Below are positions 31,385-62,727 of a DNA stretch of 64,000 bases, in pieces. Below the pieces are notes generated by a model. It saw nothing but the letters and a program-made list of their open reading frames with translations, was not told the origin of the DNA and did not search any database. The position numbers were made by a program, and so were the translations under genes. The DNA comes from Bacteroidota bacterium (GTDB lineage: Bacteria > Bacteroidota > Bacteroidia > Bacteroidales > SKPS01): contig JAKLII010000011.1 in the NCBI GenBank assembly GCA_022709695.1, forward strand, positions 41,620 through 105,619. Direction: 5' to 3'. Positions within the stretch are counted from its first letter, which is position 1, and every line of letters begins with the position of its first letter.

Positions 31385-31388
31385 GGGG

Positions 31389-34123: not shown

Positions 34124-34158
34124 GGGATTCTTTTTTTGATTACCAAGGTTTTTCTTTA

Positions 34159-34532
34159 ACCACAAAGGCACTAAGGGCACGGAGGAACACGGAGAGAGTT
34201 CTTTCGTGATTTTTAAAATCAGTGAAAATCAAAAAAAAATCCGCGTTACTTATACTGAGCGCAGCCGAAGTATCTGCGTTCTTTTTTTACCCGCTGATTC
34301 CGCAGATATTAAAACCAAATAAGACATATAAGAAAATATTAGGTTTCATATAAGCTTATATGCCTTCGTAAATAATCTTATATGTTAAAATTCAACACAT
34401 TTACACATTTACATCCCGGATCGCTTCGCTCCCGGGACTTCGCTTTGCTCAGCATTTTCACATTGGTCCCTGACCCGCAGATCCCACGGATTTTCTCAGC
34501 TTTTTCACTTTTTCCTTTTTCCTTTTGCCCTT
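34159..34532. repeat. Modular intergenic repeat element, copy 1, plus extra arms
   Basis: ACCACAAAGGCAC... core at 34159 (near-identical to 56816); AAAATCAGTGAAAATC arm at 34215; 24-nt hairpin at 34249-34272; CATATAAG palindrome at 34308-34414 (matches 44656-44772); inverted hairpin relative ACTTCGCTTTGCTCAG at 34437-34452; heptamer arm at 34506-34532. Confidence 0.85.
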
Positions 34533-34624
34533 AGTCTTTCATAAGTTATCAACATTCACCCCCGGCAGCGAGAAACCTTTTATTTTTAGCCTTGCAAATA
34601 TCCCACGGAAAAACACCTTACTGC

Positions 34625-37600
34625 ATGTCTCAATTTGTTCATCTGCACGTTCATACACAATATTCGCTCCTCGACGGGGCCTCCGGGATTTCCTCGCTGG
34701 TTTCCCGTGCAAAGGAGTTGGGGATGCCGGCGCTCGCCATCACCGACCATGGCAATATGTTTGGCGCCATCCATTTTCTGAGCGAGGCAATAAAGCAGGA
34801 AATAAAGCCTATTCTTGGCTGCGAAGTCTACGTAGCCGAGGGTGATCGTACCCGCCGGGGGGGCAGGGACGACCGCAGCGGTCACCACCTGATTCTGCTC
34901 GCCAAAAACAAGGAAGGATACCACAACCTGGCAAAGCTGGTCTCAAAGGGGTATCTGGAGGGATTTTACTACACCCCGCGTGTCGACAAGCAGCTGATCC
35001 GTGAGCATTCTGAAGGGCTTATCGCCCTGTCGGCCTGCCTGGGGGGAGAGCTTCCGCAAGCCATCATGAAGTCGGGATACGAAGCCGGGCTGGCCATCGC
35101 CCGCGAGTTTCAGGAGATTTTCGGGGAGGACTATTACCTCGAGCTCCAGAACCACGGGATCCCCGAACAGCAGGAGGTGAACCCTGTGATTGACGCCATT
35201 GCCGCCGAAACCGGAATCCGCATGGTGGCTACCAACGACGTGCATTTTATCAGGGCCGAAGACTACGATGCCCATAAAATCCTCATCTGCCTCAACACCG
35301 GTAAGGATTATGACGATGCCGACGCACTCCACTACACCGGGCAGGAGTACCTGAAGTCGGCCGGTGAGATCGAAAAGCTGTTCCCCGGAATGCCGGAGGT
35401 GCTGGAGAACACCCTGGAGATTGCCAATAAGGTTGAAGTGTTCGATCTGAAAAGGGATGTGATCCTGCCGGTATTTCCGCTGCCGGAGGGTTTTGCGGAT
35501 GCCGATGCCTACCTCAGTCACCTCACCTACGAAGGGGCTGCAGCGAAATATGGTGCTTTAAACGAAGAGGTCAAGCAGCGGCTGGTTTATGAGCTGGATG
35601 TGATCCGGGGGATGGGGTATGCCGGCTATTTCCTGATTGTACAGGATTTTATTGCAGAGGCCCGCCGCAGGGGAACCCTGGTGGGACCCGGCAGGGGTTC
35701 TGCAGCAGGCTCTGCCGTGGCCTACTGCATCGGCATCACCAATATCGACCCCATAAAATACAGGCTGCTCTTCGAGCGGTTCCTGAACCCGGAGCGTATG
35801 TCGATGCCCGATATCGATGTGGATTTTGATGATTACGGCCGCGATGATATCATCCGCTATGTACAGGACAAATACGGCGAAGACCATGTGGCACAGATTG
35901 TTACATTTGGAAGGATGGCAGCCAAATCGGCCATCCGCGATGTGGCCCGGGTGCTGAAGCTCCCACTGCCCGAGGCAGACCGCCTGGCGAAAATGGTGCC
36001 CGATGGCCCGAAAGTCACCCTGGAGTCGGCCCTGCGCGATTCGCCCGACCTGATGCAGGAACTGAAGGAGGGGGAGGAGAAGGTGCAGAAAACCCTCCGG
36101 TTTGCCCAGACCCTCGAAGGCTCCGTGCGGCAGACCGGCACCCATGCCTGTGGCGTGATCATCGGCCCCGAACCCCTGATTGAACACATCCCCCTCTGCA
36201 CCCAGAAGGAGTCAAGCATCATGGTTACCCAGTACGACGGGAAGCTGATTGAAGGGGTGGGGATGCTGAAAATGGACTTCCTGGGCCTCAGCACCCTGTC
36301 TATGATCAAGGACGCGCTGGTGGCCATCGAGGAGCGGCATGGGATAAAAATCGACATCGATACCATCCCGCTGGATGACGAAAAGACCTTTGCCCTCTTC
36401 AGAAGGGGCGATACCATGGGGCTTTTCCAGTTTGAATCGGAGGGGATGCAGATGTACCTCAAAGACCTTCAGCCCGAAGGGATCGAAGACCTGATCGCCA
36501 TGAATGCCCTCTACCGCCCGGGCCCGATGGATTACATCCCGGTGTATATCGACCGGAAGCACGGAAAGGCGAAAGTGGAATACCCCCACGAGATGCTGAG
36601 CGGGATCCTTGACTATACCTACGGCATTATGGTGTACCAGGAACAGATCATGCAGGCGGCCCAGATTATGGGGGGGTTCTCGCCCGGGAAAGCCGATAAT
36701 CTGCGGAAAGCCATGGGGAAAAAGGAGATTCAGATCATGCTTCAGCAGAGGTTGGATTTTATTGAAGGGGCTGAAGCCAGGGGAATTGACCGGAACAAGG
36801 CCACAGAGGTCTTCGACACCATGGCCAAATTTGCAGAATATGGCTTCAACAGATCCCATTCTGCCGCTTACTCATTGCTGGCTTACCAGACAGGCTATCT
36901 GAAAGCCCACTACCCCTCTGAGTACATGGCCGCCGTGCTCACGCACCACCTGAGCGACATCAAAAAAATCACCCTTTACATCGATGCCTGCCGGCAAAGC
37001 GGCATCAATGTGCTGGGGCCCGACGTCAACCACAGTGGCATCCGGTTCTCCACCAACGAAAAGGGGGAGATCCTGTTCGGCCTCGGAGCGGTGAAGGGTG
37101 TGGGTGAAATCGCTGCACAGGCGATCATACAGGAACGCCGGAGCCGGGGAGCCTTCGCCTCGGTGTTCGACTTCATCAAGCGTGTGCCCCTGAAGACCGT
37201 GAACAAACGATGCCTCGAGGCGATGGCCATGGCCGGGGTTTTCGACAGCCTGGGAACCCACCGCGCCCAGTTTTTCCATTCCGAAGGGGTGGATGGCACC
37301 ACCTTCATCGAAAAACTCATCCGTTTCGGGGGGCTGGCCCAGCAGCACAGGGAAACGGCACAGCAATCCCTTTTCGGCGACGATGAAGCGGCTGCAATCC
37401 CCGATCCGTTGCTCCCCAGCTGCAACCCCTGGTCCCCCCTCCAGCAACTCAGTAACGAAAAGGAGGTGATCGGATTCTATGTGTCCGGACACCCCCTCGA
37501 CCAGTATAAGCTGGAAATCAGGACCTTTGTGCGGAATAACACCGATGAGGTGAAAAACGACATGAAACGCTTCATGCAGCGTGAGTTCACCCTCGGGGTG

Positions 37601-38086
37601 ATCGTGAATGAGGTGGCCCACCGGTATTCGAAAACCGGAAGACCCTTTGGAAACCTTACCCTCGAAGACTATCAGGGTACATTTTCCCTGAGCCTGTATG
37701 GCGAGGATTACCTGAAATGGAAACATCTGATGGTGAAGGGTGAGTTCCTCTTTATCAAAGGGGATGTGACACAGCGCCATGCAGGATCTGAAGAGTACTT
37801 TTACCGGATCAGGGATGTGAAGCTCCTGTCGGAGGTGCTGAATCATTACGTAAAAGGGATCATTTTGTCGGTGGATTTGAAGCAAACCACTGCAGATGAA
37901 CATCTTGCTGCTCAATTGCTGAAACTCATCCGGGCGCACCCGGGCAACTGCAAAATCAAGATGTTTGTGAGAAATGAAGAGGAAACGATGATGTTTTTCC
38001 TTCCGAAACGGTATGTGAATCCCTTTGATTTCCTGCGGAATATCAAGGATGTTCCTGGGGTCGTTTATGCATTGGAGGATAAATAA
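34625..38086 (+). CDS. dnaE: DNA polymerase III subunit alpha
   Basis: PHP motif HLHVHTQYSLLDG, GRGSAAGS, PDIDVDF and KMDFLGL. Start taken at MSQF. Confidence 0.98.
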   Translation: MSQFVHLHVHTQYSLLDGASGISSLVSRAKELGMPALAITDHGNMFGAIHFLSEAIKQEIKPILGCEVYVAEGDRTRRGGRDDRSGHHLILLAKNKEGYHNLAKLVSKGYLEGFYYTPRVDKQLIREHSEGLIALSACLGGELPQAIMKSGYEAGLAIAREFQEIFGEDYYLELQNHGIPEQQEVNPVIDAIAAETGIRMVATNDVHFIRAEDYDAHKILICLNTGKDYDDADALHYTGQEYLKSAGEIEKLFPGMPEVLENTLEIANKVEVFDLKRDVILPVFPLPEGFADADAYLSHLTYEGAAAKYGALNEEVKQRLVYELDVIRGMGYAGYFLIVQDFIAEARRRGTLVGPGRGSAAGSAVAYCIGITNIDPIKYRLLFERFLNPERMSMPDIDVDFDDYGRDDIIRYVQDKYGEDHVAQIVTFGRMAAKSAIRDVARVLKLPLPEADRLAKMVPDGPKVTLESALRDSPDLMQELKEGEEKVQKTLRFAQTLEGSVRQTGTHACGVIIGPEPLIEHIPLCTQKESSIMVTQYDGKLIEGVGMLKMDFLGLSTLSMIKDALVAIEERHGIKIDIDTIPLDDEKTFALFRRGDTMGLFQFESEGMQMYLKDLQPEGIEDLIAMNALYRPGPMDYIPVYIDRKHGKAKVEYPHEMLSGILDYTYGIMVYQEQIMQAAQIMGGFSPGKADNLRKAMGKKEIQIMLQQRLDFIEGAEARGIDRNKATEVFDTMAKFAEYGFNRSHSAAYSLLAYQTGYLKAHYPSEYMAAVLTHHLSDIKKITLYIDACRQSGINVLGPDVNHSGIRFSTNEKGEILFGLGAVKGVGEIAAQAIIQERRSRGAFASVFDFIKRVPLKTVNKRCLEAMAMAGVFDSLGTHRAQFFHSEGVDGTTFIEKLIRFGGLAQQHRETAQQSLFGDDEAAAIPDPLLPSCNPWSPLQQLSNEKEVIGFYVSGHPLDQYKLEIRTFVRNNTDEVKNDMKRFMQREFTLGVIVNEVAHRYSKTGRPFGNLTLEDYQGTFSLSLYGEDYLKWKHLMVKGEFLFIKGDVTQRHAGSEEYFYRIRDVKLLSEVLNHYVKGIILSVDLKQTTADEHLAAQLLKLIRAHPGNCKIKMFVRNEEETMMFFLPKRYVNPFDFLRNIKDVPGVVYALEDK

Positions 38087-38132
38087 CCAAAGTTTATCCT
38101 TTCAGCCGTGAACAAAATGTTCTGAAAAATTG

Positions 38133-38140
38133 TAAGTTTG
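38133..38140 (+). promoter_or_regulatory. -7 box for trxA
   Basis: TAAGTTTG(CA). Confidence 0.6.
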
Positions 38141-38164
38141 CAGAAACCTATAATTACACGCATA

Positions 38165-38482
38165 ATGGCATTAGAAATCAACGATGCGAATTTTGAAGAA
38201 CTGGTGGTAAAATCGGATAAACCGGTAATAATCGACTTCTGGGCAGTCTGGTGCGGCCCATGCCGTATGATTGCACCCCTGATTGAAGAGATGGCCAGGG
38301 AGTATGAAGGGAAAGCGGTGATCGGGAAGCTTGACGTTGACAGCAACCCCAACGTGACCACGAAATTTGGCGTCCGCAATATCCCCACAGTGCTCTTCCT
38401 GAAAAACGGTCAGGTAGTCGACAAGCAGGTGGGCGCCGTACCCAAATCGGTACTGGTGCAAAAGCTGGAAGCACTTCTCTGA
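38165..38482 (+). CDS. trxA: Thioredoxin
   Basis: WCGPC active site. Start taken at MALEIND. Confidence 0.97.
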   Translation: MALEINDANFEELVVKSDKPVIIDFWAVWCGPCRMIAPLIEEMAREYEGKAVIGKLDVDSNPNVTTKFGVRNIPTVLFLKNGQVVDKQVGAVPKSVLVQKLEALL

Positions 38483-38556
38483 TTGATGTGAATACTGTAA
38501 CTATTTCAGGATGAGCCGGATTATTCCATCAGGAACCGGTATCACGCTATTTCCTT

Positions 38557-39495: not shown

Positions 39496-39569
39496 GTACC
39501 CGGCATTTCAGTTCCGGGTGATCAAACTTTAGGAGGTTTTTATTGTTCATTTGAAAAAACAATTGAACC

Positions 39570-40262: not shown

Positions 40263-40271
40263 CAGGAGCCT

Positions 40272-41495: not shown

Positions 41496-41641
41496 GGGTC
41501 TGGTTATTTAGAATGGTACAAAATTACGGTTTAATGATGATCATTGTGTTGCCGGTCGAACAGAATGCTGATTTCTTTGGTATTTTTAACACTGACAAAA
41601 AATCGAAATTATTCATACAAACACACAGAAAATCAATCACT

Positions 41642-42220: not shown

Positions 42221-42307
42221 CCGGCATAATCCGTGTTCTGTTTCTTTGAGCTCGCTGACTTTCAATCTGTCATTTATTCTCAGATTGCATTCTGGGATGA
42301 ATAGTTG

Positions 42308-42315
42308 TATTTTTG
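42308..42315 (+). promoter_or_regulatory. -7 box for the SBBP-repeat gene
   Basis: TATTTTTG. Confidence 0.5.
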
Positions 42316-42344
42316 TGCGGTAGTAAGAAATTAATGCAATTCTC

Positions 42345-44032
42345 ATGAAACACATCATATTGTGGGTTTTTGTGTTGATTGCCATGCCTTTGTCCTCCCA
42401 GAAACCTGTTTGGGAATGGGCAAGAACCACCGGTGGGCCAGGGAAATCCTTCTTTAATGGTGTCAATGCAAGCCCTGATGGGTATATCTATGTAACAGGC
42501 GGTTATGGTGATGGATTTATCACCTTTGGTGCTGATACTTTGCAACCATGCGGTGTTCAGTGGGCAGATGTATTCTTAGCTAAGATAAACTCTTCGGGCA
42601 ATGTGTTGTGGGTAAAGACTTTTTGTGGATATGGACATGAATTTGGTAACCAGCTTGCTTTCGACAAGGGGGGCAATTTGTATCTTACCGGGGTGTTCGC
42701 AAGCCCTTATCTGGTTTTTGGTAGTGATACTTTGATTAATTTGCCGGGTACTTCATCACCTGACTATGGTTACCAGTTCATTGTTAAGCTGGATTCTGCA
42801 GGCAACTATCAATGGGGAAAGGTTATCGGAGGGATGCGTCTCATGGGATATTACATTGATGTAGCAGAAGATCATGAGGATAATCTATTGGTTAGTGGAA
42901 TATTCTCTACCCCTTAGTTGTGTTTGGGAGCGACACCCTGATCAATATGGGAAACACAGACCTTTTTCTGGCCAAGTATGATACCAATGGTAATCTGCTG
43001 TGGGCCAGATCTGTCGGAGGAGCAGGTTACGAGGGCTCAAAATCGATTGATATCGATGAAACAGGTCATGTGTTGATTGTGGGCTTTTTTACAAGCAGCC
43101 CTGCCTGGTTCGATACGGTGGCTTTGTTTAATCCGGCAACCACTGGATTGGGAATTTTACAATCTTTCTTTTTGGCCAAATACGATCCGGCCGGCAACTT
43201 GGTATGGGTAAAAGCAGAGGGTGGCCCTGGCAGCTCAGGCGGGGCACAGGTCGCGGCTCATCCTTCCGGAGGCTCAGTGGTTGCCGGTGGGATCCTTGCC
43301 CCTTCCGGTTTAGTTGGAAATGTGGTGTTAGCACCAGTGGGGGAGTCTTGTGCCTTTTTTGCAAAACATGATCTCTCGGGGAATGTGCAATGGGTGCAAT
43401 CGGTTGGAGGTACACTGAGCATCAGTAAAGACGGGGGAACCAATGTTGCGGTTGATCAGAACGGTGATATCATTGCTACAGGTTCGTATTACGGGCCTGC
43501 TTTGATCATTGGCATGGATACTTTGCAAAACGCCAACTACTTACAAGGTTATGATATTTTCATCGTAAAATACAATGCTTCCGGTATTCCCCAGTGGGCG
43601 GCTTCTGTTGCGGGCAGTGGAAATGAACATATTGAAGATCTTTGTGTTGACTTTTCGATGAGCACTTACATAGCAGGATTATATGGTTGTCAGATGCTTA
43701 TAATAGGGCAAGACACCCTTGTGAACAACCAGCAGCACAAGGGGTATATTGCAAGACTAAGCGAAACCACAGATATTACCGATCCAAAAATAGAATTGTC
43801 TGAAATTCAGGTATATCCCAATCCTTTTACCGAACAGGTTTTTGTAGTACTGCCCAAAGGGTTGCCTGAGGTTGTTTGGGAACTGTACGATCTGCATGGA
43901 AGGTTATTGTTTCATGGGAGACTCCTGGAAACAAACCGCATTTTTCTGCATGATTTACCAGCAGGGGTTTATGTGTTATCGTTGGCCGATCAAAAAATGG
44001 CAGTGACCCAAAAGCTGATCAAAACCAGATAA
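42345..44032 (+). pseudogene. Frameshifted T9SS type A cargo with SBBP-like beta-propeller repeats (~562 aa if repaired)
   Basis: ORFs 42345-42917 (signal peptide) and 42920-44032 (CTD VYPNPF) join if one C is added to the C4 run at 42910-42913, giving FSTPLVVFGSDTLIN. This parallels the earlier repeat FASPYLVFGSDTLIN. Confidence 0.85.
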
Positions 44033-44042
44033 GGATAATAGA

Positions 44043-44107
44043 AAAGCCCGCCCTTAAAGTTACTTTCTGTTGGTTTGCCTATGCATGTTTCCTTAGGGGC
44101 GGGCTTT
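44043..44107. terminator. Long-loop inverted repeat, probable bidirectional terminator
   Basis: AAAGCCCGCCCTTAA ... TTAGGGGCGGGCTTT between convergent genes. Confidence 0.7.
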
Positions 44108-44146
44108 CACCGTTGTTTAAATTGCCGGAAGCAAAAAAGGAGTGGT

Positions 44147-44470
44147 TTATTGAATGATCAGTTTGCCCGATTTCAAGGTTTTATTTTGATCCACCACCCT
44201 GTAGAAGTAAAATCCTTTATCCAACAGATTAACGGGAAGCTCGGTAATGGTATTGCTGTTAACAGCACTTCTGCCCATCAGCTTGCCGGTATAAGCATAG
44301 ATTTCAATGAAACATCCCGATGGCATCGCTGTTCCTTCTGTTACCACAAATAGCATGTCAGTAGCTGGGTTCGGATACACATAAATCGTAGATTCCGGGT
44401 TTTCTTTCAGATCGGAAGTGCTCATCTGCTTTATGGTGGCATTTGCACTGCTTACCTGTATCAATGAGTC
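44147..44470 (-). pseudogene. Orphan C-terminal fragment of a T9SS cargo gene (linker plus CTD only)
   Basis: ...STIYVYPNPATDML...IYAYTGKL...GFYFYRV...GKLIIQ. There is no signal peptide, and the ORF's first residues derive from the repeat beginning at 44471. Confidence 0.75.
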
Positions 44471-44772
44471 GATGAGGTAAATGCCAAGCATGCTTCTGGG
44501 GCTCTGTCGTTTACTGAACCACATAGCAACATAGGAATCATAGCCACATAGAAAAAGCTATGATCCTATGTTGCCTATGATGCAATGTGGTAAAAGAAAA
44601 TCAGTGCAAATCTTAATGAATCCGCGTCATCGGTGTTTTATTTTAACATTCAGACATTAAAACCATATAAGACATATAAGAAAATATAAGGTTTCATATA
44701 AGCTTAAATGTCTTAAATGACTTCTTAAATGATCTTATAGGTTAAAAATCAACACATTTACACATTTCCACA
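44471..44772. repeat. Modular intergenic repeat element, copy 2; left ~160-bp direct repeat (44471-44629)
   Basis: Aligns with 49778-49937. Contains a CATAG-type palindrome at 44518-44591, the constant arm with an empty hairpin site, and the CATATAAG palindrome plus (ACACATTT)n at 44656-44772. Confidence 0.9.
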
Positions 44773-46476
44773 TCATTCCTTCACCACTTTTTTGGTGATT
44801 ACAATTCCTTTTTCTGTGGTGACTTTTAGGATATACATTCCTGGTTTCAAGTCCGAAACATCCAAAGTAACGAGTTGGATTTCGGGTCTGAGAGTTGCCA
44901 TGAGTTTTCCCTGCAGGTTATACATTTCGGCCTTTGAAATCCTATCGTGCAGGAGGTTTAAGCTCAGATAAAGAACCTCATGTGCAGGATTTGGATATAC
45001 GATCATTGGCTCGTATTTCAACAGATTCAACTCCTCCATACCAATATGCATCAGGGTATCGATACAGCCGGGCATTACACAGCCAATGCTGTCGGTTTTT
45101 GCCAGCCAGGCACCGGCACCAACACCCGTAATCAGAAAACCCTCCGATTCGGCTTTCCTTAGATTGTATAAAAATTCACCCCAATACGGAACCCAACGGC
45201 TCCAAATTTCATTGCCCAAAGTGTCGGAGCAAAACAGGTACACTCCCGAAAAACCATTGACCTGAGAGGCAATTACAATATTCCCGGCTTCATCTTCAAC
45301 AATCCCCATGGGTGCTGCTGATGCCAGATATAAGCCATTAGGATGCAGGTATTTTCCATGATATGCCTGCAAAACAATATTTCCATTTAAATCCATTCTT
45401 CCGAAGTGGATATAACCCCATCCCACCGGATAGGTGGAATCACCATCGGTAGTAGCAAACAGAAAACCGCCATTTTTACTTTGGTTAACACAAAGCTTAT
45501 TGATAATGAAATCAAGAGTCTTGTCAAATATCTGAGTCCAGGATAAATCCAAACTGCTGTCAAGCTTGAGTAAATAGTATTTTCTGTTAAAGTGGGCAGA
45601 CCAGGTTGGGTCATTCTTAAACTCATTATGACCTGCAAGCAAATACCCCCCATCCTCGGTTTTCACAATGCCACTGCACATTACAGCGGTTTTATGTCCT
45701 CCTCCTACAAAGAATCGCTTCATGTTAATAATGTTGGCATTGCTTTCGAATTGCACAATGGTTACAAAAGTGGTGTCCCCATAATACAGGCTGTCATAAC
45801 CAAAATGTCGGCTTTCGGAAACAGTATAGGCCTGGGTGGTAAACCGGCCGTCGGCCTCAGGCAGCAGGTCCACAGACCAGATCAGTCCGCCAAGGGAGTC
45901 GGGCAGTTCCACAATCTTACTCCAGATGAGGTTTCCTGCGGTATCGAGCTTGATAAAAAAAGTTTTTTCATCTAAAAAAATCTGAGTACTGTCAAATGAG
46001 ACATATTCACCCATTGAAAGCAAATTTCCGTCTGAAAGCATGATCAGGTTATGCATATAGGTCCGGAATTGGTTGAATTCTCCTAAAGAATCTTTCCGAA
46101 CCCACACTTGATTCCCAGTTTGGTCGAGTTTCATGATAAAAGGTTTCCAGATGCTGGTTTTCACCGCACCGGGCAGCTTGTCGCGGTACTCACCGTTCAG
46201 GTAAATGTACCCATCCATCTCCAGGGCATCCGTGCCATACACATTTACGTCGTAATTCGACAGGGTAAAATATTTATGGATGACGTAGGAGATCTGCAAG
46301 GTTTGTTTTCCGGAGCCCGGCGCGAAGAAAGGAATTTTTTGCGATGGCAGTTGTTGTGGGTATCCATCGCCCTGGCTTAGCTTACCAGGCTGAATATAGG
46401 GTGAAGGCACCCGGACCTGTGCGTGTAAACCTATGGAAATCAAAAAGAAGAACAGAGTAAAGAGTATCTTTTGCAT
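44773..46476 (-). CDS. T9SS type A sorting domain protein with a probable beta-propeller; function unknown
   Basis: 567 aa with a signal peptide, repeated ..K(L/T)D..GN..W motifs, and the CTD VYPNPAHEVL...GMYILKV...KKVVKE. Confidence 0.85.
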   Translation of the reverse strand: MQKILFTLFFFLISIGLHAQVRVPSPYIQPGKLSQGDGYPQQLPSQKIPFFAPGSGKQTLQISYVIHKYFTLSNYDVNVYGTDALEMDGYIYLNGEYRDKLPGAVKTSIWKPFIMKLDQTGNQVWVRKDSLGEFNQFRTYMHNLIMLSDGNLLSMGEYVSFDSTQIFLDEKTFFIKLDTAGNLIWSKIVELPDSLGGLIWSVDLLPEADGRFTTQAYTVSESRHFGYDSLYYGDTTFVTIVQFESNANIINMKRFFVGGGHKTAVMCSGIVKTEDGGYLLAGHNEFKNDPTWSAHFNRKYYLLKLDSSLDLSWTQIFDKTLDFIINKLCVNQSKNGGFLFATTDGDSTYPVGWGYIHFGRMDLNGNIVLQAYHGKYLHPNGLYLASAAPMGIVEDEAGNIVIASQVNGFSGVYLFCSDTLGNEIWSRWVPYWGEFLYNLRKAESEGFLITGVGAGAWLAKTDSIGCVMPGCIDTLMHIGMEELNLLKYEPMIVYPNPAHEVLYLSLNLLHDRISKAEMYNLQGKLMATLRPEIQLVTLDVSDLKPGMYILKVTTEKGIVITKKVVKE

Positions 46477-46491
46477 GGTAAAAAGTATAAG

Positions 46492-46518
46492 GGCGGGGAC
46501 TGTTCCACAGCCCCCGCC
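46492..46518 (-). promoter_or_regulatory. GC-rich intergenic stem-loop between tandem T9SS genes
   Basis: GGCGGGG-a-CTG-ttcca-CAG-c-CCCCGCC. Confidence 0.55.
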
Positions 46519-46528
46519 GGAGGAATGT

Positions 46529-49236
46529 TTATTTGCGTATTACAAGTTTTTCGATGCCAACCGGTTTTCCCTGATTGAATATGGTAATCAGGTAAACTCC
46601 ATTGGCAAGGCTGTTTACATCCAGTTCAGTACTGGTTCCCTGAATAGATTGCCGGATCAGTATCCTTCCGGTGAGAGATCCCTCACAGAAATTTCAGTTC
46701 CGGGTACATCGGTAATTATGGAGACTATGGGGGTTGTACCTGCTGGGTTGGGAAAAACAGTTGGCTTGCTCAGGATTGGTTCCTTCGGTGTTTTCCCGAT
46801 TCTTGGCAAATAAGAAGTAAGATCGGATGAAATCAGACCAAAGGAGTACCCCAGATAGGCCTCCAGGATTGACAATGCCACACTGGATGCCACGGTGGTT
46901 CCAAATGCCATGTCGATCAGCTGGTTGATATCATCCTGTTGCAATTGGGTGAAATCTCCTCCGTAGGTGAAGTACACCAGATCAAGGAGTTCGAAAAGGA
47001 TATCACAGGCATCTGTTTCAAAAGTATCGGTGGCTATCTGGTACAGCACCTGTTTGTAGGTATCCACATTCGATGGATCCAATACTTCATAATAGTGCAA
47101 TATCAGTGAAAAGATGCTTTGAAAATCACCATCACTATCAAGAGCACCGATGATACCATTCACATCAATCAGGGTGGTGTCGGCATCAAGATAATAGTTG
47201 TGCAGCTCATTTCTGGCCTTTCTCAGCTCTTTTTTATTATAGGCTACCTCCATTTCATACATTTCGTATTGGGTAAGGGAATCGGCTGCCAGAAAGATGG
47301 CATTCAGGCTCTGTTGCGAAAGGGTGTCGGTTCGGTTTGCCAGTGCATCCCTTACGGCACCGTTTTTAATACCATAGGGGTTTTGAAGCAGGATATCGGC
47401 CACAAAAACAGCCGGCATGGCCTCTTTTGCCGCCATAATGGCAAGTACATCATAGCTTGGGTTTTGCGACATAAACTCAGCATAGGCATAGATGTAATTG
47501 GTTGAATCGAACGTGTTGGCAATATTCAGCATATAGGCATGATTGCTACCGTTTGCGTAATTCTAAAAATCTCCAAGGGCTGCCACATAATCTGAGGCAG
47601 TACTGAAAATGTTCCCCACAATGGCAGGCAATTCTGGGTATTGGGATGGAATTCTCGATTCGCAGTGGGGGTAGAGGTCCTGATCATCTGTAATCCAAGA
47701 ATGCTGAGTAGGTTGCACATGGTTAGGTATCCCGAAATTGTTCTGGTTTCCGGTGTAGTATTCGATATAATACCAGGGAGAGCCTGAGGTAAATTTGGGT
47801 TCCATGTATACGATATCGCTAAGGTTCCATGGATTTTGCCCCTGGTGGTTGTTAAAGAAGTCCCGTTCAGAGCCGGTGGCCAGAGGGTAGGGTCTTTCAA
47901 TGATATTAAATGCCGGAGAGGTGGAATACCCGGTCATGGACCCACCCTGCATTCTTGCCACACCATACACCGGATCATTTAGCCCGGCCGGTTCCACAGA
48001 GGCGCTCAGGGCAAAAAAGTCATCGGTTTTTATTGGGACCAGAGTGTTGCAAAAGCATCGAAGGCCGTCATCATCAGGTTGGGTAGGGTGTTCTATTCCT
48101 CTGTTTTTGTTTAGGGCCTGGATACTGTAGTAACAATCGGTAACTGTATTGCGATACAGTTCGTTTGATTGGCTACCGGAGTTCACTACAACGATACCGT
48201 AAGTATTTTCAAAGTTACCTTTATTGTTGCTTACTTCGATCTCATTCCCTTCTACCTGAAAACCAGAGCATCCGTTAAGATGTATACCATACTGTTTAGG
48301 AGAGGTGCAAGGTGAGCTTTGGCAGTCAATTGCCAATTGAATCTGATTGTTGAAAAGATCCAGGTTTCTTGCAGCAATAGCCTGAATGCCAACTCTTTCT
48401 ATTTGCGGGTAATATACATTCTGAAAGATACCATCTCTTACGGTTACTTTAATTGTGGGCAGGTACCCATTGTCGATATAGACCCCTTTGGTGCAATCTA
48501 AAAATTGGTTTTTAATAGGTGTATAGGGGGGAGTAGTATTGGGACTGCTTTTTATGATGGCAGAAGAGCCAATAATATGGATTCCGGTGAAAAAATAGTC
48601 AGGATAGGCAACGTTATCGAATGTACATCCCAATACCTGAATGTTGTTAACCCGGTACATATATACTCCGATAGTACTGGCATTATATCCGCCAATGAAT
48701 TCAGTCTCTATGATACGGCTTTTATCGTTTACATAATTTCCGGTAAGGTCTGTAGGTCGGTAATTCGAGAACCAGACACCTGTCTCGAAGCCTTCGATTA
48801 CACATCTGTCCAGAATAATATAACCACCGGTTCGGGTATAAGGATTGCTGTACCAGTTATTCACAGGATAACTGGCATTCAGAATATAGCATTCTGTTAA
48901 TCTGAGTTTAGGTTGGGCGGGTGATCCAAGCTGGGGATAGGCATCCCCCAAGCCATCCATGGAAATACCATACCACAGACCTGTTGAACTGATGAAATTC
49001 ACCCCTCCTGCCCGAAGGGACCCATCGGGTCGAATAATGATTCTGTTTGTGCCTGAATTCACAAAATCGACGGTTACGCCAGGATCAATACGTAATTCGG
49101 CACCATTCCAAATCCAGAGATTTCCATTAATCGTCTGGTCTGAACTCCATGTGGTATTTGAATAAATGTATACATCCTGTGCATTGACAAATATAACAGA
49201 AAAGAGAAGAAATATCAACAAATTTAGTTTTTTCAT
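46529..49236 (-). pseudogene. Doubly disrupted T9SS cargo: right-handed beta-helix-like N-terminus, acidic helical region, CTD (~901 aa if repaired)
   Basis: An in-frame TAG at 47563-47565 gives ALGDF*NYANGSNHAYMLNI with both ORFs in the same frame. An extra TC in (TC)3 at 46673-46678 shifts the frame; removing it restores VRDLTGRILIRQSIQGTSTELDVNSLANGVYLITIFNQGKPVGIEKLVIRK* ending at 46529. Confidence 0.88.
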
Positions 49237-49741
49237 TTGATTTGAGTTTGCGTTTGTTTTTACAAGAACAGAATGATTATCAAGAAATTTGTTTAAGAGG
49301 CCACCCTGGGTTTTGGGTGGCTATTTCGCTCCCAGTCATTCTTCCCCAGCCAAAAGATGGAAATCGGATAAAGACATTGAACCCCGGTCAGCCTGTTAGC
49401 TTGTTGGGTTACGTTCATTTGTTCAAACCCACTTATTACGACAACAATAGATCTGCAGAAATGCATTAAACATGTATTGAAAAGCATCTGAAATTAAAGC
49501 GCCATTTTCAATCCCGGGAATGAGTTTCAACCAACAAATGATCGGGAATGATTCCTGTGACCTCAAAATATTAAAATCGTGTGTATAATTGAAAAGGTAA
49601 AGATAATATAAAATTAACTCATTCCGACATAAAAATGAAAATATAGTTGAAATATGTTATGCGATTAGAAAAGAACATATTAATTCGACAGAAATACCCT
49701 CATTCGTGTATTGCTGGCAATGAGGAGAATAGAAAGCGGAT

Positions 49742-49971
49742 AACGCTGATTCTTATGATCTTATATGATTATTTCTGGATGAATTAAAATGCCAGGATGT
49801 TTTCTGGGCTCTGTCGTTTTCTGAACCACATAGCAACATAGGAATCATAGCCACATAGAAGAAAACTATGATCCTATGTTGCCTATGATCCAATGTGGTA
49901 AAAGAAAATCAGTGCAAATCTTAATGAATCCGCGTCACTTGTACTGAGCGCAGTCGAAGTATCCGCGTTCT
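49742..49971. repeat. Modular intergenic repeat element, copy 3; right ~160-bp direct repeat (49778-49937)
   Basis: CATAG palindrome at 49825-49899, constant arm, and 24-nt hairpin at 49938-49961. An additional (ATGATCTT)-like arm lies at about 49742-49770. Confidence 0.9.
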
Positions 49972-49995
49972 ATATCTCAGCCCGCAAATAGCCCT

Positions 49996-53197: not shown

Positions 53198-53208
53198 AAC
53201 CTGAACTA

Positions 53209-54078
53209 TTAATGAGGCACCCCTTCGGGTTCAATATGAATGGTAGAGGTGATATGAAGTTGTTCTTTGAGCGATGTTTCCACCGATGTGGCAAGGCAAT
53301 GGGCTGTTTTTACATCGGATGCAGGATGTACCCTGATGTGAAAGGTGAGTTCACGGTGTGTGCCGTAGTTGTGAATGTGAAAATGATGGGGTTGAAGGTC
53401 GCTGCCGGCGGTTTCGTTGGCGATGCGCGTGATCTCCCGGATGAGCTCTTCCCCGGGCTCTTCTCCCAGAAGGTTGCTGATGGCATCGCGGATGATGTCG
53501 AAAGTGGTGTAAAAGAGCATCAGGGCGATAATGGCACCGGCTACACTGTCGATCCACCAGAACTGGTGGCGGAACATCAGTCCGATCAGCAGCACCACCG
53601 AGGAAAGGGCATCGCTGCGGTGGTGCCAGCCATCGGCCCGGATGGCCACATTGCTGGTTTTCCGGGCATAGTAAAATGCCAGTTGTGCCAGACCCTCCTT
53701 CACTACCACCGAAATGATGGTAACCACAATGGCAATGGTGCCGAAGTGCGCTACCTCACGTGCCATAAACCTTTCATACGATGCCACCAGAAAGCTCCAG
53801 GCAATGATGCCAAGAATAAATCCGATAAGGATTGCCGTCACCTGTTCCCACCTTCTATGACCAAAAGGATGTTCCTTGTCAGGTTTGCGGGATGAAAGCC
53901 TGATGCCGAACAGGAGTACAACAGAGCTGATGGTGTCTGAAAGGGTATGCCAGGCATCCGCAATCAGGGCTATGGATCCGGAGATTATACCTGCCCAGTA
54001 TTTGATGACAAACAGCAGTGTATTTACCACTATTGAAATAATACCTTCCAGATATCCGTACCGGGTTCTTTGGTCCAT
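53209..54078 (-). CDS. Cation diffusion facilitator family transporter
   Basis: [27 protein letters not shown] and IHIEP. Start taken at MDQRTRY. Confidence 0.93.
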
Positions 54079-54097
54079 CGGGAACAGATTTAATGGG

Positions 54098-54156
54098 CAA
54101 AGATAGGGGATAATCCCCGTAAGCCCCCTCCGTTCCCCGATCTTTTTGTAATTTCG
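54098..54156. promoter_or_regulatory. Divergent -7 boxes for the CDF gene (minus, 54098-54105) and valS (plus, 54149-54156)
   Basis: TATCTTTG on the minus strand and TAATTTCG on the plus strand. Confidence 0.55.
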
Positions 54157-54181
54157 CGGGCTGTAAAAACGAAAATATTTC

Positions 54182-56800
54182 ATGGATATCCCTGCCAAAT
54201 ACAACCCTACCGATATTGAAGACCGATGGTATTCCTATTGGAACACAATGGGCTACTTCAGATCTGTTCCCGATCACCGGGAGCCCTATACCATTGTGAT
54301 TCCTCCACCCAATGTAACCGGGGTGCTGCACATGGGGCACATGCTCAACAACACCATTCAGGACATCCTCGTGCGCCGCGCCAGGATGCAGGGTTACAAC
54401 ACCTGCTGGGTGCCGGGCACCGATCATGCCTCCATCGCTACGGAGGCCAAGGTGGTGGCTAAGCTCAGGGATGAGGGGATCGATAAGGCAACCCTTACCC
54501 GGGAGCAGTTCCTGGAGCATGCATGGGAGTGGAAGGAAAAACATGGCGGTATCATCCTCGAGCAGCTCAAAAAGCTGGGAGCCTCCTGCGACTGGGAACG
54601 CACGAATTTTACCATGGACCCCCATTACTACGAATCGGTATTGGACGTGTTCATCGATCTTTTTGAGAAGGGTTTGATATACAGAGGCGTACGCATGGTA
54701 AACTGGGATCCGAAAGCCCTTACCGCAGTGTCTGACGAGGAGGTGATCTATAAGGAGGTGCAGTCGAAGCTGTGGTATGTACGCTACCCGGTTCAAAATA
54801 CGGATAACGAATGGATTACCATAGCCACCACCCGTCCCGAAACGATCCTGGGCGATACCGCAGTGTGCGTGCACCCTGAGGACCCGCGCTACACCCACCT
54901 GGTGGGGAAAACGGTGCTGGTGCCACTGGTAAACCGGCCGGTGCCGGTAATTGCCGATCCTTATGTAGACCGTGAATTTGGCACCGGATGCCTCAAGATC
55001 ACTCCTGCCCACGACATCAACGACTATGAGATCGGCATTAAGCATCACCTGCCGGTAATCGATATCTTTAATCCCGATGGAACCCTGTGCGAAAAAGCAG
55101 AGCTCTTTATCGGGATGGATCGTTTTGAAGCGCGGCGCGCAGTGGCTGATGCACTGGAAAAAGCCGGTCATCTGGTGAATGTGGAGGATTACCTCAACAA
55201 GGTGGGCTGCTCGGAGCGCACCGATGAGGTGATTGAGCCCAAGCTTTCGATGCAGTGGTTCTTCCGGATGGGAGAGATCTCAAAACCGGCCCTCACCGCT
55301 GTGATGGACGATCTGGTGCAGTTTCATCCGGCAAAGTTTAAAAACATCTACCGCCACTGGATGGAGAACATCCGCGACTGGTGCATCTCCAGGCAGTTGT
55401 GGTGGGGGCAGCGCATTCCGGTGTTCTACGCCCCTGACGGGACGATGGTGGCAGCCAAAACGGCAGAAGAGGCGGTGCAGAAAGCCGAAACCCTTCTGGG
55501 TAGGAAAGTGGAGCTCTCTGAGCTGGAACAGGATCCCGACGTGCTGGACACCTGGTTCTCGTCGTGGCTCTGGCCCATCGCCGTGTTCGATGGCATCAGG
55601 AAGCCCGATAATGCCGATATCCGGTACTATTACCCCACCAACGACCTGATCACCGCCCCGGAAATCCTGTTCTTCTGGGTGGCCCGTATGATCATGGCCG
55701 GCTATCTGTACCGGGATGATATCCCTTTTAAAAACGTGTACCTCACGGGGATTGTCCGCGACAAACTGGGGCGGAAGATGTCGAAGCAGCTGGGTAACTC
55801 ACCGGATCCGATCCTGCTGATGGAAAAATACGGGGCCGACGGTGTGCGGGCCGGTATGCTGTTCACCTCCCCGGCAGGTAACGACCTCCCCTTCGATGAA
55901 GGGTTATGCGAACAGGGGCGCAACTTCTGCAACAAGATCTGGAATGCCCTCCGCCTGGTAAATGGCTGGACGGAGGACCCCTCGCTTTCCCAACCCGGTT
56001 ATGCCGCAGCGGCGGTACAGTGGTTTGAAGCCCGCCTATCGCAGGCAATGGCTTCCATCGAAGACCTGTATGGCAAATACAGGCTTTCGGAGGCTTTGAT
56101 GACGGTGTACAAACTCATCTGGGACGACTTCTGCTCGTGGTACCTCGAGATGGTGAAACCCGCCTACCAGCAGCCCACCGACTCCGTAACCCTCAGCGCA
56201 ACGACCCGCTTTTTCGGGGAGCTGATGAAGATACTGCATCCGTTCATGCCCTTCATCTCCGAGGAGATCTGGCACCGCCTTGCTGAGCGTAACGCCGGGG
56301 AGGACCTGATCATCACCCCGATGCCGGAAGCCGGGCCCTTCGATGAACAGCTGCTGGCCGGGTTCAGCCTGGCATCTGAGGTCATTATGGCCATCCGCAC
56401 CTACCGGCAGGATAAAGGGATTCCGCAGAAGGATGCCCTGGCCATGTACGTTACCGGTGAGCTTCCTGAAATGTTTGTGCCCGTCATCCGGAAGATGGGG
56501 AACCTCTCGCTGCTGGAAACGGTTGCTCAAAAGCCTGCCGGAACCCTGGCAGTGATGGTGGGCACCCTCGAATGTGCATTTCCGCTGGGTGATGGGGTGG
56601 ATGCCGCAGAAGAGATTGACCGCCTCGAAAAGGAGCTGGAGTACAACCTTGGATTTCTGAAATCGGTGGAGGGGAAGCTGAAGAACGAAAAGTTCATGGC
56701 TTCGGCCCCGCAGAAGGTGATCGACACCGAACTGAAAAAACAGGCCGATACTCTCGAGAAAATCAAAGCCCTGCGGGCGCAGATCGATCTGCTGAGGTAG
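54182..56800 (+). CDS. valS: Valine--tRNA ligase
   Basis: [29 protein letters not shown] and a C-terminal coiled coil. Confidence 0.98.
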
Positions 56801-56815
56801 TTTTTGATTTTTTTT

Positions 56816-57017
56816 ACCACAAAGGCACTGAGGACACGGAGGAACACTGAGAAGAGGTCAGAAAACCCAGGTTCCTATGTGGTAAAGAAATCAGTGAAAA
56901 TCTTAATAAATCCGAGTCATCGGTGTTCTCTTGTCAAAGCGAAGTGCTTTTCAACCTTCTGCTACTCTATGACAGCAATCCAAACAACTAAACAACTCAA
57001 CAACTCAACCAATAAAC
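56816..57017. repeat. Modular intergenic repeat element, copy 4
   Basis: Hybrid core ACCACAAAGGCAC...CCTATGTGGT at 56816-56883, constant arm with an empty hairpin site, and octamer tail (A/C)AACAACT x3-4 at 56982-57017. Confidence 0.85.
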
Positions 57018-62726: not shown

Positions 62727-62727
62727 A

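Follow-up and report, generated by a model that had tools for sequence, protein, structure and literature searches.

Intergenic patchworks of tandem-unit arrays as probable gene-less relatives of hairpin gene cassettes

The four repeats described here lie in a 64,000-nucleotide stretch of DNA (the window) and are patchworks of separate 7–10-nt tandem-unit arrays together with two small inserts; they probably spread and recombine as non-autonomous, gene-less relatives of hairpin gene cassettes. The first-pass annotation of this DNA had described a single element with a swappable core, but what varies is not a 255-bp element: the arrays and hairpins are independent of one another and can be nested or strung together. 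Its broader proposal, a non-autonomous mobile or recombining family with interchangeable modules, is supported, while movement itself and its driver are things that we infer.

All four copies are on the forward strand, with ACCAC starting at 34159, 44518, 49825, and 56816, respectively; in copies 2, 3, and 4 GTGGT ends at 44591, 49899, and 56883. They have the box AAATCAGTG..AATCCGNGT in common, and downstream of the core every copy reads AAATCAGTG(A/C)AAATC..AATCCG(C/A)GT. The coordinates, the orientation, the ACCAC/GTGGT motifs, and the following box had all been given correctly, and copies 1 and 2 do continue into a palindrome of CATATAAG units and then a (ACACATTT)n tail, just as copy 4 terminates in (AAACAACT)n. 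The boundaries had been drawn too narrowly, as copies 1, 2, and 3 extend further: copy 1 sits within a block of ~390 bp (34150–34540), and copies 2 and 3 share ~47 extra left-hand bases (from 44471 and 49778). Similarity between copies is far above chance (E values of 1e-10 to 1e-56, blastn-short, 3.39-Mb genome). The arrays have a period of 8–10 with 2.4–4.6 units per array (TRF), and the arms of the copies consist of ~4 units each. Modules A, B, and C are AT-rich and built of tandem units, and the units CACGGAG, CATAG, CATATAAG, ATCCGCG, and ACACATTT contain no G-tracts. Copy 1 is made up of the following parts:

34126..34158, + strand: left flank motif L0 (TTTTTGATTACCAAGGTTTTTCTTTA), where the profile match begins
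34159..34195, + strand: module A, ACCAC and four 8–10-nt units (CACAAAGG, CACTAAGGG, CACGGAGGAA, CACGGAGA)
34215..34282, + strand: module B (AAAATCAGTGAAAATC..AATCCGCGTTA, then TCTGCGTTCT)
34289..34308, + strand: CGCTGAT/CGCAGAT box
34315..34386, + strand: module C hairpin, ~four CATATAAG-type units per arm (z −2.3)
34394..34464, + strand: (ACACATTT)n array
34465..34540, + strand: right end, CGCAGAT/CACGGAT units, then (TTTTCA/TTTTCC/TTTGCC)n..GCCCTTAGTCTTTC

The profile match, C3:75745–75867 (nhmmer, R1), corresponds to 34126–34248 of the window. Its first motif, L0, overlaps the likely rpsP upstream region, is kept in 9 composite copies, and has a counterpart without an arm in the orthologous spacer of genome G005, where homology to the copy 1 region picks up again at CATAAGTTATCAACA. 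Module A of copy 1 is effectively a left arm only; the local stem at 34178–34208 has 11 bp and is weak (DNA fold z −2.25), and in an RNA fold it is the right end of the copy that pairs with module A, G-U pairs included. Two inserts interrupt the copy: the 24-nt insert D (34249–34272) splits module B, and a 40-nt REP-like piece (TCCCGGATCGCTTCGCTCCCGGGACTTCGCTTTGCTCAGC) at 34414–34453 breaks the (ACACATTT)n array. This array and the 40-nt piece also flank the four-helix-bundle gene at C17:44863 and are present at C20:98178, and the CGCTGAT/CGCAGAT box also follows module B at C17:34297, C12:311327, C3:106918, and C2:106777. The parts of the other three copies are as follows:

44471..44517, + strand: copy 2, 47-nt loop segment, common to copy 3 and C1:435437
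44518..44591, + strand: copy 2, inner hairpin ACCAC..GTGGT with CATAG units (−19.8 kcal/mol, z −7.9)
44597..44639, + strand: copy 2, module B without insert D
44663..44743, + strand: copy 2, module C hairpin with CATATAAG units (z −4.5)
44752..44772, + strand: copy 2, (ACACATTT)n tail that runs up to the stop codon of the − strand T9SS gene 44773..46476
49731..49772, + strand: copy 3, outer left arm B' (AGAAAGCGGATAACGCTGATTCTTATGATCTTATATGATT), module B in reverse complement
49778..49824, + strand: copy 3, loop segment homologous to 44471–44517
49825..49899, + strand: copy 3, inner CATAG hairpin, nested in the B'/B loop (z −6.5)
49906..49971, + strand: copy 3, module B (49906–49937 and 49962–49971)
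56816..56883, + strand: copy 4, chimeric core joining a CACGGAG-type left arm to a CATAG-type right end (GGTTCCTATGTGGT) (z −1.1)
56888..56929, + strand: copy 4, module B without insert D
56982..57011, + strand: copy 4, (AAACAACT)n array

The outer left arm B' of copy 3, which the first-pass annotation had missed, pairs with the conserved box, and insert D (49938–49961) again splits module B. Copy 2 has no B', and a truncated T9SS CTD fragment adjoins in its place. A unit similar to the AAACAACT of copy 4 occurs in arrays near the four-helix-bundle gene C1:267826.

Paired arms match each other, and the unit types vary by hairpin (CATAG/CTATG, CATATAAG/CTTATATG, CGCGGAT/ATCCGCG). Inverted pairs of tandem-unit arrays make up the cores of copies 2 and 3, the outer B'/B of copy 3, and the C hairpins; copies 1 and 4 retain only single arms. 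A palindromic core had been claimed for all four copies. It is strong in copies 2 and 3 alone, where 0 of 200 shuffles folded as well (DNA fold), but it is weak in copy 1 and absent from copy 4, whose core folds no better than shuffled sequence (29 of 200 as good). The description of copy 4 as a hybrid was right about the two unit types, but its arms do not pair, and this core is a recombinant joint rather than a palindrome. Copy 3 is a hairpin within a hairpin, with 49728–49975 folding at −45.1 kcal/mol (z −7.7). For the L0-A-B composite it is the sequence that is conserved and not the fold, and its spread as a block may therefore have nothing to do with hairpins.

One might take such hairpins for selected RNA or DNA structural signals, that is, terminators, mRNA-stabilizing 3' structures, or sites for RNase III or other binding proteins. 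BIMEs, for example, bind IHF and gyrase. The hairpins are strong, three window copies adjoin stop codons, copy 1 has one terminator-like stem with a T-run (34188–34208), and the stems of 23S rRNA intervening sequences (IVS) are RNase III substrates (PMC4990558). However, terminator-like sites are no commoner than in shuffles and there are none at copies 2–4; the hairpin ends TTTTTACCAC..GTGGTAAAAA put the T-run before the stem, not after it, on both strands. The earlier observation that three copies adjoin gene 3' ends stands for the window but does not generalize, as the family is found genome-wide in divergent, convergent, and tandem spacers alike, in mixed orientation relative to the neighbouring genes and at five loci between divergent genes. 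At the same spacers, other genomes of the genus do without the modules, and Rfam returned no match to the modules at E≤1. We therefore regard selected structural signals as distinctly unlikely.

The composite profile gave 50 matches in the source genome, ~19 of them near full length, so the modules reach well beyond the four copies in the window; in six genomes of the same genus the counts were 35, 29, 13, 1, 0, and 0. Copies on different contigs are 85–97% identical, and genes of G000 and G001 share only 75–85% nucleotide identity. Composite blocks of 130–250 bp recur on different contigs with their non-repetitive parts included, namely L0, a 20-nt linker between A and B, and the 47-nt loop segment. 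Insert D occupies one exact site at five filled loci, and solo arms are common. The copies have demonstrably multiplied in this lineage, and they differ in which whole arrays have been gained, lost, or exchanged and in their site-specific mini-inserts. The family had been called undescribed, which agrees with the Rfam result and with full-text literature searches that returned no match. The conserved box is found across many bacterial and archaeal phyla, nearly always gene-less (a GxxExxY gene adjoins only 1 of 37 cross-phylum module B matches), and the arm type AAATCAGTG.AAATC......AATCCG.GT recurs with hardly any change in Bacteroidota, Planctomycetota, Firmicutes, Spirochaetes, Deltaproteobacteria, and several archaeal lineages.

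Relatives with and without the modules can be compared directly at several spacers. They are absent from the valS spacers of G005 and G004, and G006 has a different empty hairpin directly after the valS stop codon. The rpsP-dnaE spacer measures 275 bp without modules in G005 versus ~550 bp in the source genome. With the genus counts, these spacers provide the presence/absence polymorphism expected by the first-pass annotation. In the G001 spacer orthologous to C12:311365, the first composite is absent, the flanks align perfectly, and the B module that both genomes have is without the 24-nt insert in G001, which gives one orthologous empty site; no target-site duplication is visible at this insert site. 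The G001 orthologue of the element on C16 has module A and the tail without B and C. Orthologous spacers thus differ in module content, although the empty-site relatives, at 55–74% amino-acid identity, are too diverged to place exact insertion points of large blocks.

Could arrays that never move produce the same picture? Immobile arrays may slip at hairpin-prone spacers, with gene conversion homogenizing them until they look like a dispersed family. At C7:6129 both orthologous spacers carry arrays of differing unit types, (GTTAGGA)n versus (TTAGAAA)n in G000 and G001, and at C1:534096 the A-B composite is strongly diverged; the other empty hairpin after valS in G006 and the frequency of solo arms fit such turnover as well. 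Slippage, however, cannot produce 130–250-bp blocks with non-repetitive linkers at 85–97% identity, counts of 0 versus 50 inside one genus suit invasion better than a general mutational process, and the 24-nt insert lies at a single exact site in five loci. We consider in-situ turnover unlikely.

Rearrangement is apparent near copies 2 and 3. G002 is without the whole 42345–49990 island, which copy 3 bounds, and the orphan CTD gene is cut at the edge of copy 2. Copies 2 and 3 form ~160-bp direct repeats around a 5.1-kb T9SS segment that is absent from G002, as if the hairpins acted like integron attC sites and the genes between them were cassettes exchanged by a putative recombinase. Two 82-nt hairpins around a RhuM-like gene between wzt and wzm, three A-type arms that each lie by the 3' end of a large ATPase gene (C12:19.9–23.2 kb), and constant ACCAC/GTGGT ends with a variable centre, which resemble attC architecture, would also suit this reading. 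Against it, the majority of copies bracket nothing. Integron attC core sites are RYYYAAC and GTTRRRY, which by eye the ACCAC/GTGGT ends do not resemble. On balance, boundary sites of this kind are very improbable.

The reading of the copies as relatives of gene cassettes rests on genes located elsewhere. The first-pass annotation had suggested that similar arms flank GxxExxY and four-helix-bundle genes, and this link, when tested, holds: inverted arrays flank all five GxxExxY genes of the source genome and 9 of its 11 four-helix-bundle (TIGR02436) genes. One GxxExxY gene is enclosed by ACCACGGAG..CTCCGTGGT arms, one four-helix-bundle gene lies between (GAAAATGT)n and (ACACATTT)n, and the GxxExxY gene C12:32307–32801 is enclosed by the same ends as the window hairpins. 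The layout recurs in most of a set of 30 GxxExxY loci taken from the same order, which includes one locus of the source genome, with locus L066 ending in ACCACATAG..CTATGTGGT. Arm unit type, labelled by eye for loci from this one order, tracks the GxxExxY tree with 8 changes versus 16.6 expected, and 0 of 200 shuffles were as low. CACGGAG and CACATAG arms belong to the clade of the source genome's C12:32400 and of L066; GAT-type arms (module B) belong to that of its C19:180885 and C1:65619. Each of the seven genus genomes has 2–5 GxxExxY genes, whether it has 0 or 50 composite matches, so gene presence does not predict family abundance. Genome-wide searches placed no GxxExxY or four-helix-bundle match on C3, the contig of the window, and the window hairpin loops hold no ORF of at least 80 aa. 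We found no publication on tandem-unit hairpin cassettes of these genes.

No transposase was identified among the nine real genes flanking the copies or the one orphan gene fragment scanned with them. The genome does have seven Y1-transposase (Y1_Tnp) matches, on contigs other than that of the window, so one could propose that the repeats are REP doublets moved by a Y1 (RAYT) transposase; REPINs are doublets that form hairpins, occur in clusters, and nest (PMC3116915), and the 40-nt piece at 34414–34453 resembles the REP beside the RAYT at C1:635781. A Y1 mobilizer, raised earlier for this family, is not supported: five of the seven matches have GC-rich REPs of their own (e.g., GCTGCGTAGCAGCGCC, CACCCCTTCGGGGT, CAACCCACTTCGTGGGTTG). 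These RAYT-flanking REPs share nothing with modules A, B, and C, and A-, B-, or C-type arrays are found beside none of the seven. The modules themselves are AT-rich, of tandem units, and without the terminal GTAG or CGTC tag (PMC3733652). That the repeats are REPINs is, in our view, extremely improbable.

Returning to gene cassettes, we propose that the building block of a class of small selfish DNA would be an arm of ~four tandem 7–10-nt units, two of which, inverted, would form a hairpin. Full versions would hold one small gene in the loop, for a protein of one of two kinds: GxxExxY, with a PD-(D/E)XK nuclease fold, or four-helix-bundle, from the family of the ORF in 23S rRNA intervening sequences; the loops in the window would be empty or filled by another hairpin. 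Module B (ATCAGTG/ATCCGCG units) would be the right arm of the outer hairpin, the ACCAC..GTGGT core (CACNGAG or CATAG units) a separate hairpin in or beside the outer loop, and module C (CATATAAG units) a third, with the ACACATTT and AAACAACT tails representing the kind of arm that flanks four-helix-bundle genes. Nesting and recombination of arrays could then generate the seemingly swappable core and chimeric joints such as that of copy 4. Nearby rearrangements, including the T9SS island and its truncated CTD gene, could have the same origin. A trans-acting factor would move the elements, most plausibly the matching GxxExxY nuclease, which may bind or cut its own unit array on a hairpin or single-stranded DNA.

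A wider reading, possible but doubtful, is that the GxxExxY proteins and, in parallel, the four-helix-bundle proteins are dedicated factors of a transposase-less mobile class, with iteron-like 7–10-nt arrays read unit by unit. The window patchworks would then be its non-autonomous majority, which nest in loops, take 24–40-nt mini-inserts at fixed sites, and seed rearrangements.

We found no published explanation for tandem 7–9-nt intergenic repeats in bacteria or for two large protein families, PDDEXK_3/GxxExxY and the 23S-IVS four-helix-bundle family, and the window locus seems to be the non-coding side of one system that joins the repeats and both protein families. The arrays behave as separable modules: they nest in and recombine with one another, they vary among close species, and their unit type tracks the tree of the small protein that they enclose elsewhere. 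If the proteins recognize their own arrays, this would be a new mode of DNA movement without a known transposase and would offer a defined protein-DNA pair that can be tested at the bench. The almost unchanged arm type across phyla would, if the wider reading is true, mean either spread between domains of life or a shared and very constrained protein-DNA code. Those who annotate and assemble genomes from metagenomes should keep these patchworks in mind, as they flag hot spots where genes come and go (here, a T9SS cargo island) and inflate the spacers beside core genes (rpsP-dnaE, valS).

Among known systems, MITEs, which derive from insertion sequences and are non-autonomous, are similar in that gene-less copies outnumber gene-bearing relatives with the same ends and are patchy among close relatives. 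They differ in that the window family has neither a transposase-encoding parent nor a visible target-site duplication, and its ends are arrays that vary by sub-family; no IS with the ends of the window hairpins was seen in the source genome.

BIMEs are mosaics of enterobacteria, and they and REP/REPINs are, like the window family, few-motif mosaics presumed to have moved in trans. A REP is a palindrome of 20–40 bp that is tagged at one end with the tetranucleotide GTAG or CGTC (PMC3733652). REPINs, too, are short, non-coding, hairpin-forming intergenic repeats in many copies that insert in or next to each other (PMC3116915). The window hairpins, in contrast, lack the GTAG/CGTC tag and end in TTTTTACCAC..GTGGTAAAAA, and their arms are 30–40-nt tandem-unit arrays rather than single GC-rich palindromes. 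The REPs cognate to the genome's RAYTs are different ones, and where relatives carry a gene, its product has a PD-(D/E)XK fold or is a four-helix bundle and is not a Y1 transposase.

Cyanobacterial STRR are heptamer repeats. Heptameric intergenic repeats of Xanthomonas and Nostoc have the unit GGGNATC with four units preferred, which has been explained by G-quadruplex formation from four G-tracts (PMC4692102). The likeness lies in mostly non-coding tandem units of the 7-nt class, ~four per array, with variable copy number, whereas the window units have no G-tracts and occur in complementary inverted pairs. The small dispersed repeats (SDR) of Nostoc are reportedly (Elhai and co-workers, 2008) inserts of 21–27 nt at defined positions in tandem heptamer arrays or hairpins. 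The 24-nt insert D in module B, with five filled sites and one orthologous empty one, resembles SDR, although phylum and sequence are different.

The last comparison is with ORF-bearing IVS of 23S rRNA, such as the 428-nt IVS in helix 45 of Coxiella burnetii, which carries an S23p ORF (PMC4990558). The window copies differ from these in that all four lie between protein-coding genes rather than in helix 25 or 45 (Rfam found no rRNA in the window), in having loops without an ORF, and in having arms that are nested and concatenated periodic arrays of 7–10-nt units. The likeness lies in the IVS being a small element, held to be selfish and horizontally acquired, in which inverted ends form a stem around a gene of the S23p four-helix-bundle family: nine of the source genome's 11 S23p-family genes lie between inverted arrays, and arms of this kind are also present as the ACACATTT tails of copies 1 and 2.

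In four repeat elements, all on the plus strand, ACCAC starts at the sites where the first-pass annotation had placed it; the window belongs to contig C3 of a draft genome of 21 contigs (C1 to C21 below) with about 49.5% G+C.

Repeat elements of the window
34159, plus strand: copy 1, with the 5' ends of rpsP (minus) and dnaE (plus) on either side
44518, plus strand, GTGGT end at 44591: copy 2, flanked by a truncated type IX secretion C-terminal-domain (T9SS CTD) fragment and the 3' end of a T9SS gene
49825, plus strand, GTGGT end at 49899: copy 3, flanked by a 557-aa gene and the 3' end of a beta-lactamase-family gene
56816, plus strand, GTGGT end at 56883: copy 4, flanked by valS and an outer-membrane beta-barrel gene

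We call ACCAC with its tandem-unit arm module A. As had been described, every core (4/4) is followed by a conserved box, AAATCAGTG(A/C)AAATC..AATCCG(C/A)GT (module B), copies 1 and 2 carry beyond it a further palindrome, built of CATATAAG-type units (module C), with an (ACACATTT)n tail, and copy 4 ends in (AAACAACT)n. Matches between modules within the 3.39-Mb genome reach blastn-short E values of 1e-10 to 1e-56, which excludes chance.

The core had been read as a palindrome throughout; this stands for copies 2 and 3, whose single-stranded DNA folds are significant (-19.8 kcal/mol, z -7.9, and -17.4 kcal/mol, z -6.5, respectively), but not for copy 1, with a weak 11-bp stem (z -2.25), or copy 4, which folds no better than shuffled sequence (z -1.1). 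With a CACGGAG-type left arm and a CATAG-type right end, copy 4 is the joint of two different hairpins rather than a hybrid palindrome. The ACCAC starts were correctly placed, but copies 1, 2, and 3 are larger than claimed. Copies 2 and 3 have an extra 47 nt on the left side in common, and copy 1 belongs to a block of ~390 bp (34150-34540); the right end of this block, (TTTTCC/TTTGCC)n..GCCCTTAGTCTTTC, is able to pair with module A. A reverse-complemented module B (B') forms the outer left arm of copy 3 (49731-49772) and gives 49728-49975 a nested fold, one hairpin inside another (-45.1 kcal/mol, z -7.7), the outer stem being split by a 24-nt mini-hairpin at 49938-49961 (insert D). The window also holds a solo array, (AAAGGCA)2.6(AAAAGTA)2.9 at 31346-31385, which corresponds, in reverse complement, to the (TTTTGCC/TTTTAC)n arrays with which several composites end.

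The modules are not confined to the window. Nine copies of the best-conserved composite (a left flank motif L0, A, a 20-nt linker, and B; 78% mean column identity) served to build a profile, and blast and profile searches together gave 50 matches in the genome, ~19 covering most of the composite, ~15 the A arm only, and ~10 the B arm only. Arrays and hairpins are separable modules, found in several combinations.

Combinations of modules
A-B, then a CGCAGAT box and (TTTTCC)n
A-B, then C and the tail
B'-loop-CATAG hairpin-B
C by itself
C17:5241, C17:6574, and C3:660: complete A-type hairpins of 82-135 nt with short loops

Family copies occupy divergent, convergent, and tandem spacers, and composites are co-oriented within each contig (C3, 5/5 plus; C18, 4/4 minus; C16, 4/4 minus; C17, 2/2; C2, 2/2). 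Replication-linked orientation was rejected, as neither local GC skew nor gene-strand bias tracks this pattern. So was an outer L0/B hairpin as a general feature: by eye L0 resembles a decayed left arm, but RNAalifold on the nine copies gives only a 6-bp CACTGA/TCAGTG pairing with zero covariation, and the hairpin is valid just where a full B' arm is present (copy 3 and C1:435437). Since the composite has no conserved fold, it would spread as a sequence block. That the copies are structural signals maintained by selection is rather unlikely. Neither terminator-like nor sigma-70 promoter-like sites exceed those in shuffled sequence, none lies within copies 2-4, and the hairpin ends read, on either strand, T-run, stem, A-run, which is the reverse of an intrinsic terminator. 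Rfam at gathering scores returned only RNase P (bacterial class A RNA, 62723-63106, minus strand, 253.9 bits), and nothing at E<=1 over 34000-57200.

Within the genus, profile matches number 50 (this genome), 35, 29, 13, 1, 0, and 0, and in other genera of the order 0-26; the modules have multiplied in some lineages of one genus. Presence/absence differences at orthologous spacers, which the first-pass reading of a mobile family implied, do occur: the valS spacer is without modules in two same-genus genomes, G005 (86 bp) and G004 (175 bp). In a third, G006, an empty hairpin of another kind, with (TTAATTGT)8 and then (AACCATTA/AACAATTA)n, lies just past the valS stop (on its contig C10), where our genome has copy 4. 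The rpsP-dnaE spacer measures 275 bp in G005 versus ~550 bp here, homology ending at GATTACCAAGGTT and restarting at TTATCAACA, and the segment 42345-49990, with copies 2 and 3 inside, is wholly absent from the same-genus genome G002; for such large blocks, the relatives are too diverged to fix exact junctions.

The segment 42345-49990 is itself a T9SS cargo island with four CTD-bearing ORFs, one of which, an orphan CTD, is truncated near 44470 at the edge of copy 2; G002 has a different gene in the syntenic region. Copies 2 and 3 form direct repeats of ~160 bp, 85-97% identical, around the right part of this island.

Genes of the relative G001 are 75-85% identical to those of our genome. At C12:311365, the first A-B composite is missing from G001 and a second B module is common to both, and the G001 element at C16:153124 comprises L0, A, and the tail without B and C. 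Other orthologous spacers hold arrays in both genomes, with different unit types. Slippage in situ combined with gene conversion is an unlikely explanation of the family.

Insert D (ACTTGTACTGAGCGCAGTCGAAGT) occupies one exact position inside module B at five loci, and a 40-nt piece (TCCCGGATCGCTTCGCTCCCGGGACTTCGCTTTGCTCAGC) is inserted within (ACACATTT)n arrays.

Sites of the inserted pieces
34249-34272 and 49938-49961 (window); C17:154903; C12:311624; C18:95859: insert D
34414-34453 (window); C20:98178 region; upstream of C17:44863; C16:81871: 40-nt piece

In the C12:311365 region, insert D is present in our genome only, between ..AATCCGCGTC and ATCCGCGTTCT; G001 has the orthologous B module without it, the flanks align perfectly, and this alignment reveals no target duplication. 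Differences between orthologous sites involve entire modules as well as a site-specific insert of 24 nt.

The 40-nt piece resembles the REP beside a RAYT gene (the Y1 transposase of REP elements) at C1:635781. The genome has seven RAYT-like matches (C21:78717, C20:28611, C8:21654, C1:635682, C1:485363, C1:219872, and C21:77816), of which five show the classical REP/RAYT layout, with their own cluster of GC-rich REP hairpins; one match is a truncated duplicate. The Y1-transposase link that the first-pass annotation had raised was not borne out, 0/7 being adjoined by modules A, B, or C, and with five flanked by REPs of their own, we rejected RAYT as the mobiliser. As no RAYT adjoins these modules, a REPIN/RAYT origin fails its defining test (PMC3116915, PMC3733652) and is highly improbable.

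Arms of these kinds surround genes elsewhere in the genome. The genome encodes five GxxExxY proteins (TIGR04256; Pfam PDDEXK_3, a family of unknown function listed among the PD-(D/E)XK families, PMC3424549) and 11 four-helix-bundle proteins (TIGR02436, the 23S-IVS protein family). Similar arms had been said to flank such genes, and inverted short-unit arrays indeed surround 5/5 and 9/11 of them, with a tandem unit that varies from gene to gene. The arms of the GxxExxY gene C12:32400, TTTTACCACGGAGACATAGAGAACACGGAG.. and ..CTCCGTGTCCTCCATGCCTCCGTGGTAAAA, have ends identical to the window cores; two further GxxExxY genes lie between CACTGAT/CACGGAT arrays and AATCCGTG arrays of module B type; and the four-helix-bundle gene C17:44863 has (GAAAATGT)n on one side and (ACACATTT)n on the other, with the 40-nt piece as at 34414-34453. 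A TRF census gave 20 inverted array pairs, six around genes of the two families and the others empty; because TRF misses imperfect units, it was not used for counts.

The same layout recurs in most of 30 same-order GxxExxY loci (C12:32400 included), with units of the form CRCNNNK (CACAAAG, CACAGAG, CGCAAAG, CACGAAT, CACAGAT, and CACATAG); one locus, L066, ends in ACCACATAG..CTATGTGGT. Arm type, labelled by eye, follows the tree of 34 GxxExxY proteins, with eight changes against a shuffled mean of 16.6 (0/200 shuffles as low), which shows that gene and arms are inherited or transferred together. GAT-type arms accompany one clade (SH-aLRT 99), including our C19:180885 and C1:65619, and CACATAG and CACGGAG arms the clade of L066 and C12:32400; the clustering also points to candidate protein partners of modules A and B. 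Across the genus, GxxExxY gene number is unrelated to element number and was rejected as its predictor. That the arms are attC-like cassette boundaries is quite improbable.

Further arrangements of repeats and genes were seen. A four-helix-bundle gene next to a tRNA gene (C12:306190-306723) has ~80-nt flanking repeats that are direct, not inverted. Near-identical 82-nt A-type hairpins (C17:5241-5322 and 6574-6655) lie on either side of a 284-aa RhuM-like gene, itself situated between wzt and wzm of an ABC transporter, with a four-helix-bundle cassette (C17:7600-7965) as neighbour. In C12:19950-23210, a 379-aa gene and two out of three large ATPase genes (403-488 aa), which by their sequences look to be of the AAA_14/DUF4143 type, have A-type arms (19991, 21504, and 23200) next to their 3' ends; another such gene, C3:1793 (region C3:1536-3040), is preceded by a CCACAGAGTT/AACTCTGTGT hairpin.

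One arm type extends far beyond the order. The pattern AAATCAGTGNAAATCN6AATCCGNGT (22 fixed bases) occurs in 37 stretches of a species-level genome collection, against ~0.07 expected in 596 Gb at equal base frequencies by our own calculation. Its hosts are Bacteroidota, Pirellulales, Phycisphaerales, Verrucomicrobia, Deltaproteobacteria, Syntrophomonadaceae, Butyrivibrio, Spirochaetes, Ignavibacteriaceae, and several archaea, among them Methanophagales, Syntrophoarchaeum, and Halobacteriota. Many of the 37 have a complementary left arm within 130 nt upstream; a tie to adjacent GxxExxY genes was rejected, being true of only 1/37. A GTGGT-ended arm joined to a B-type array is recurrent in Pirellulales, Aminicenantes, and Chitinophagaceae.

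The window copies are probably non-autonomous, gene-less relatives of the GxxExxY/four-helix-bundle cassettes. Modules that nest within or next to hairpin loops, and arrays that recombine with one another, would account for the "swappable core" and the chimeric copy 4, for the loss of the left arm of copy 2 and the CTD truncation, and for the T9SS segment having 160-bp direct repeats around it. The matching GxxExxY protein, acting in trans, would be the best candidate for the mobiliser.

A full-text literature search found no description of the cassettes or of their gene-less forms, which agrees, as does the Rfam result, with the family having been called undescribed. The closest described system for the gene-bearing form is the ORF-bearing 23S rRNA intervening sequence (PMC4990558), and REPIN and BIME mosaics come closest in behaviour to the gene-less form. 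For arrays and mini-inserts, the nearest are heptamer repeats (PMC4692102) and the small dispersed repeats of Nostoc, like which insert D behaves. The heptamers of Xanthomonas and Nostoc have the four-unit habit and intergenic location in common with our arrays but are quadruplex-forming, whereas the window units are without G-tracts (PMC4692102). None of these systems has its defining tests passed by the window elements: as miniature non-autonomous intergenic repeats they are known in kind, and it is their architecture and gene association that are undescribed.
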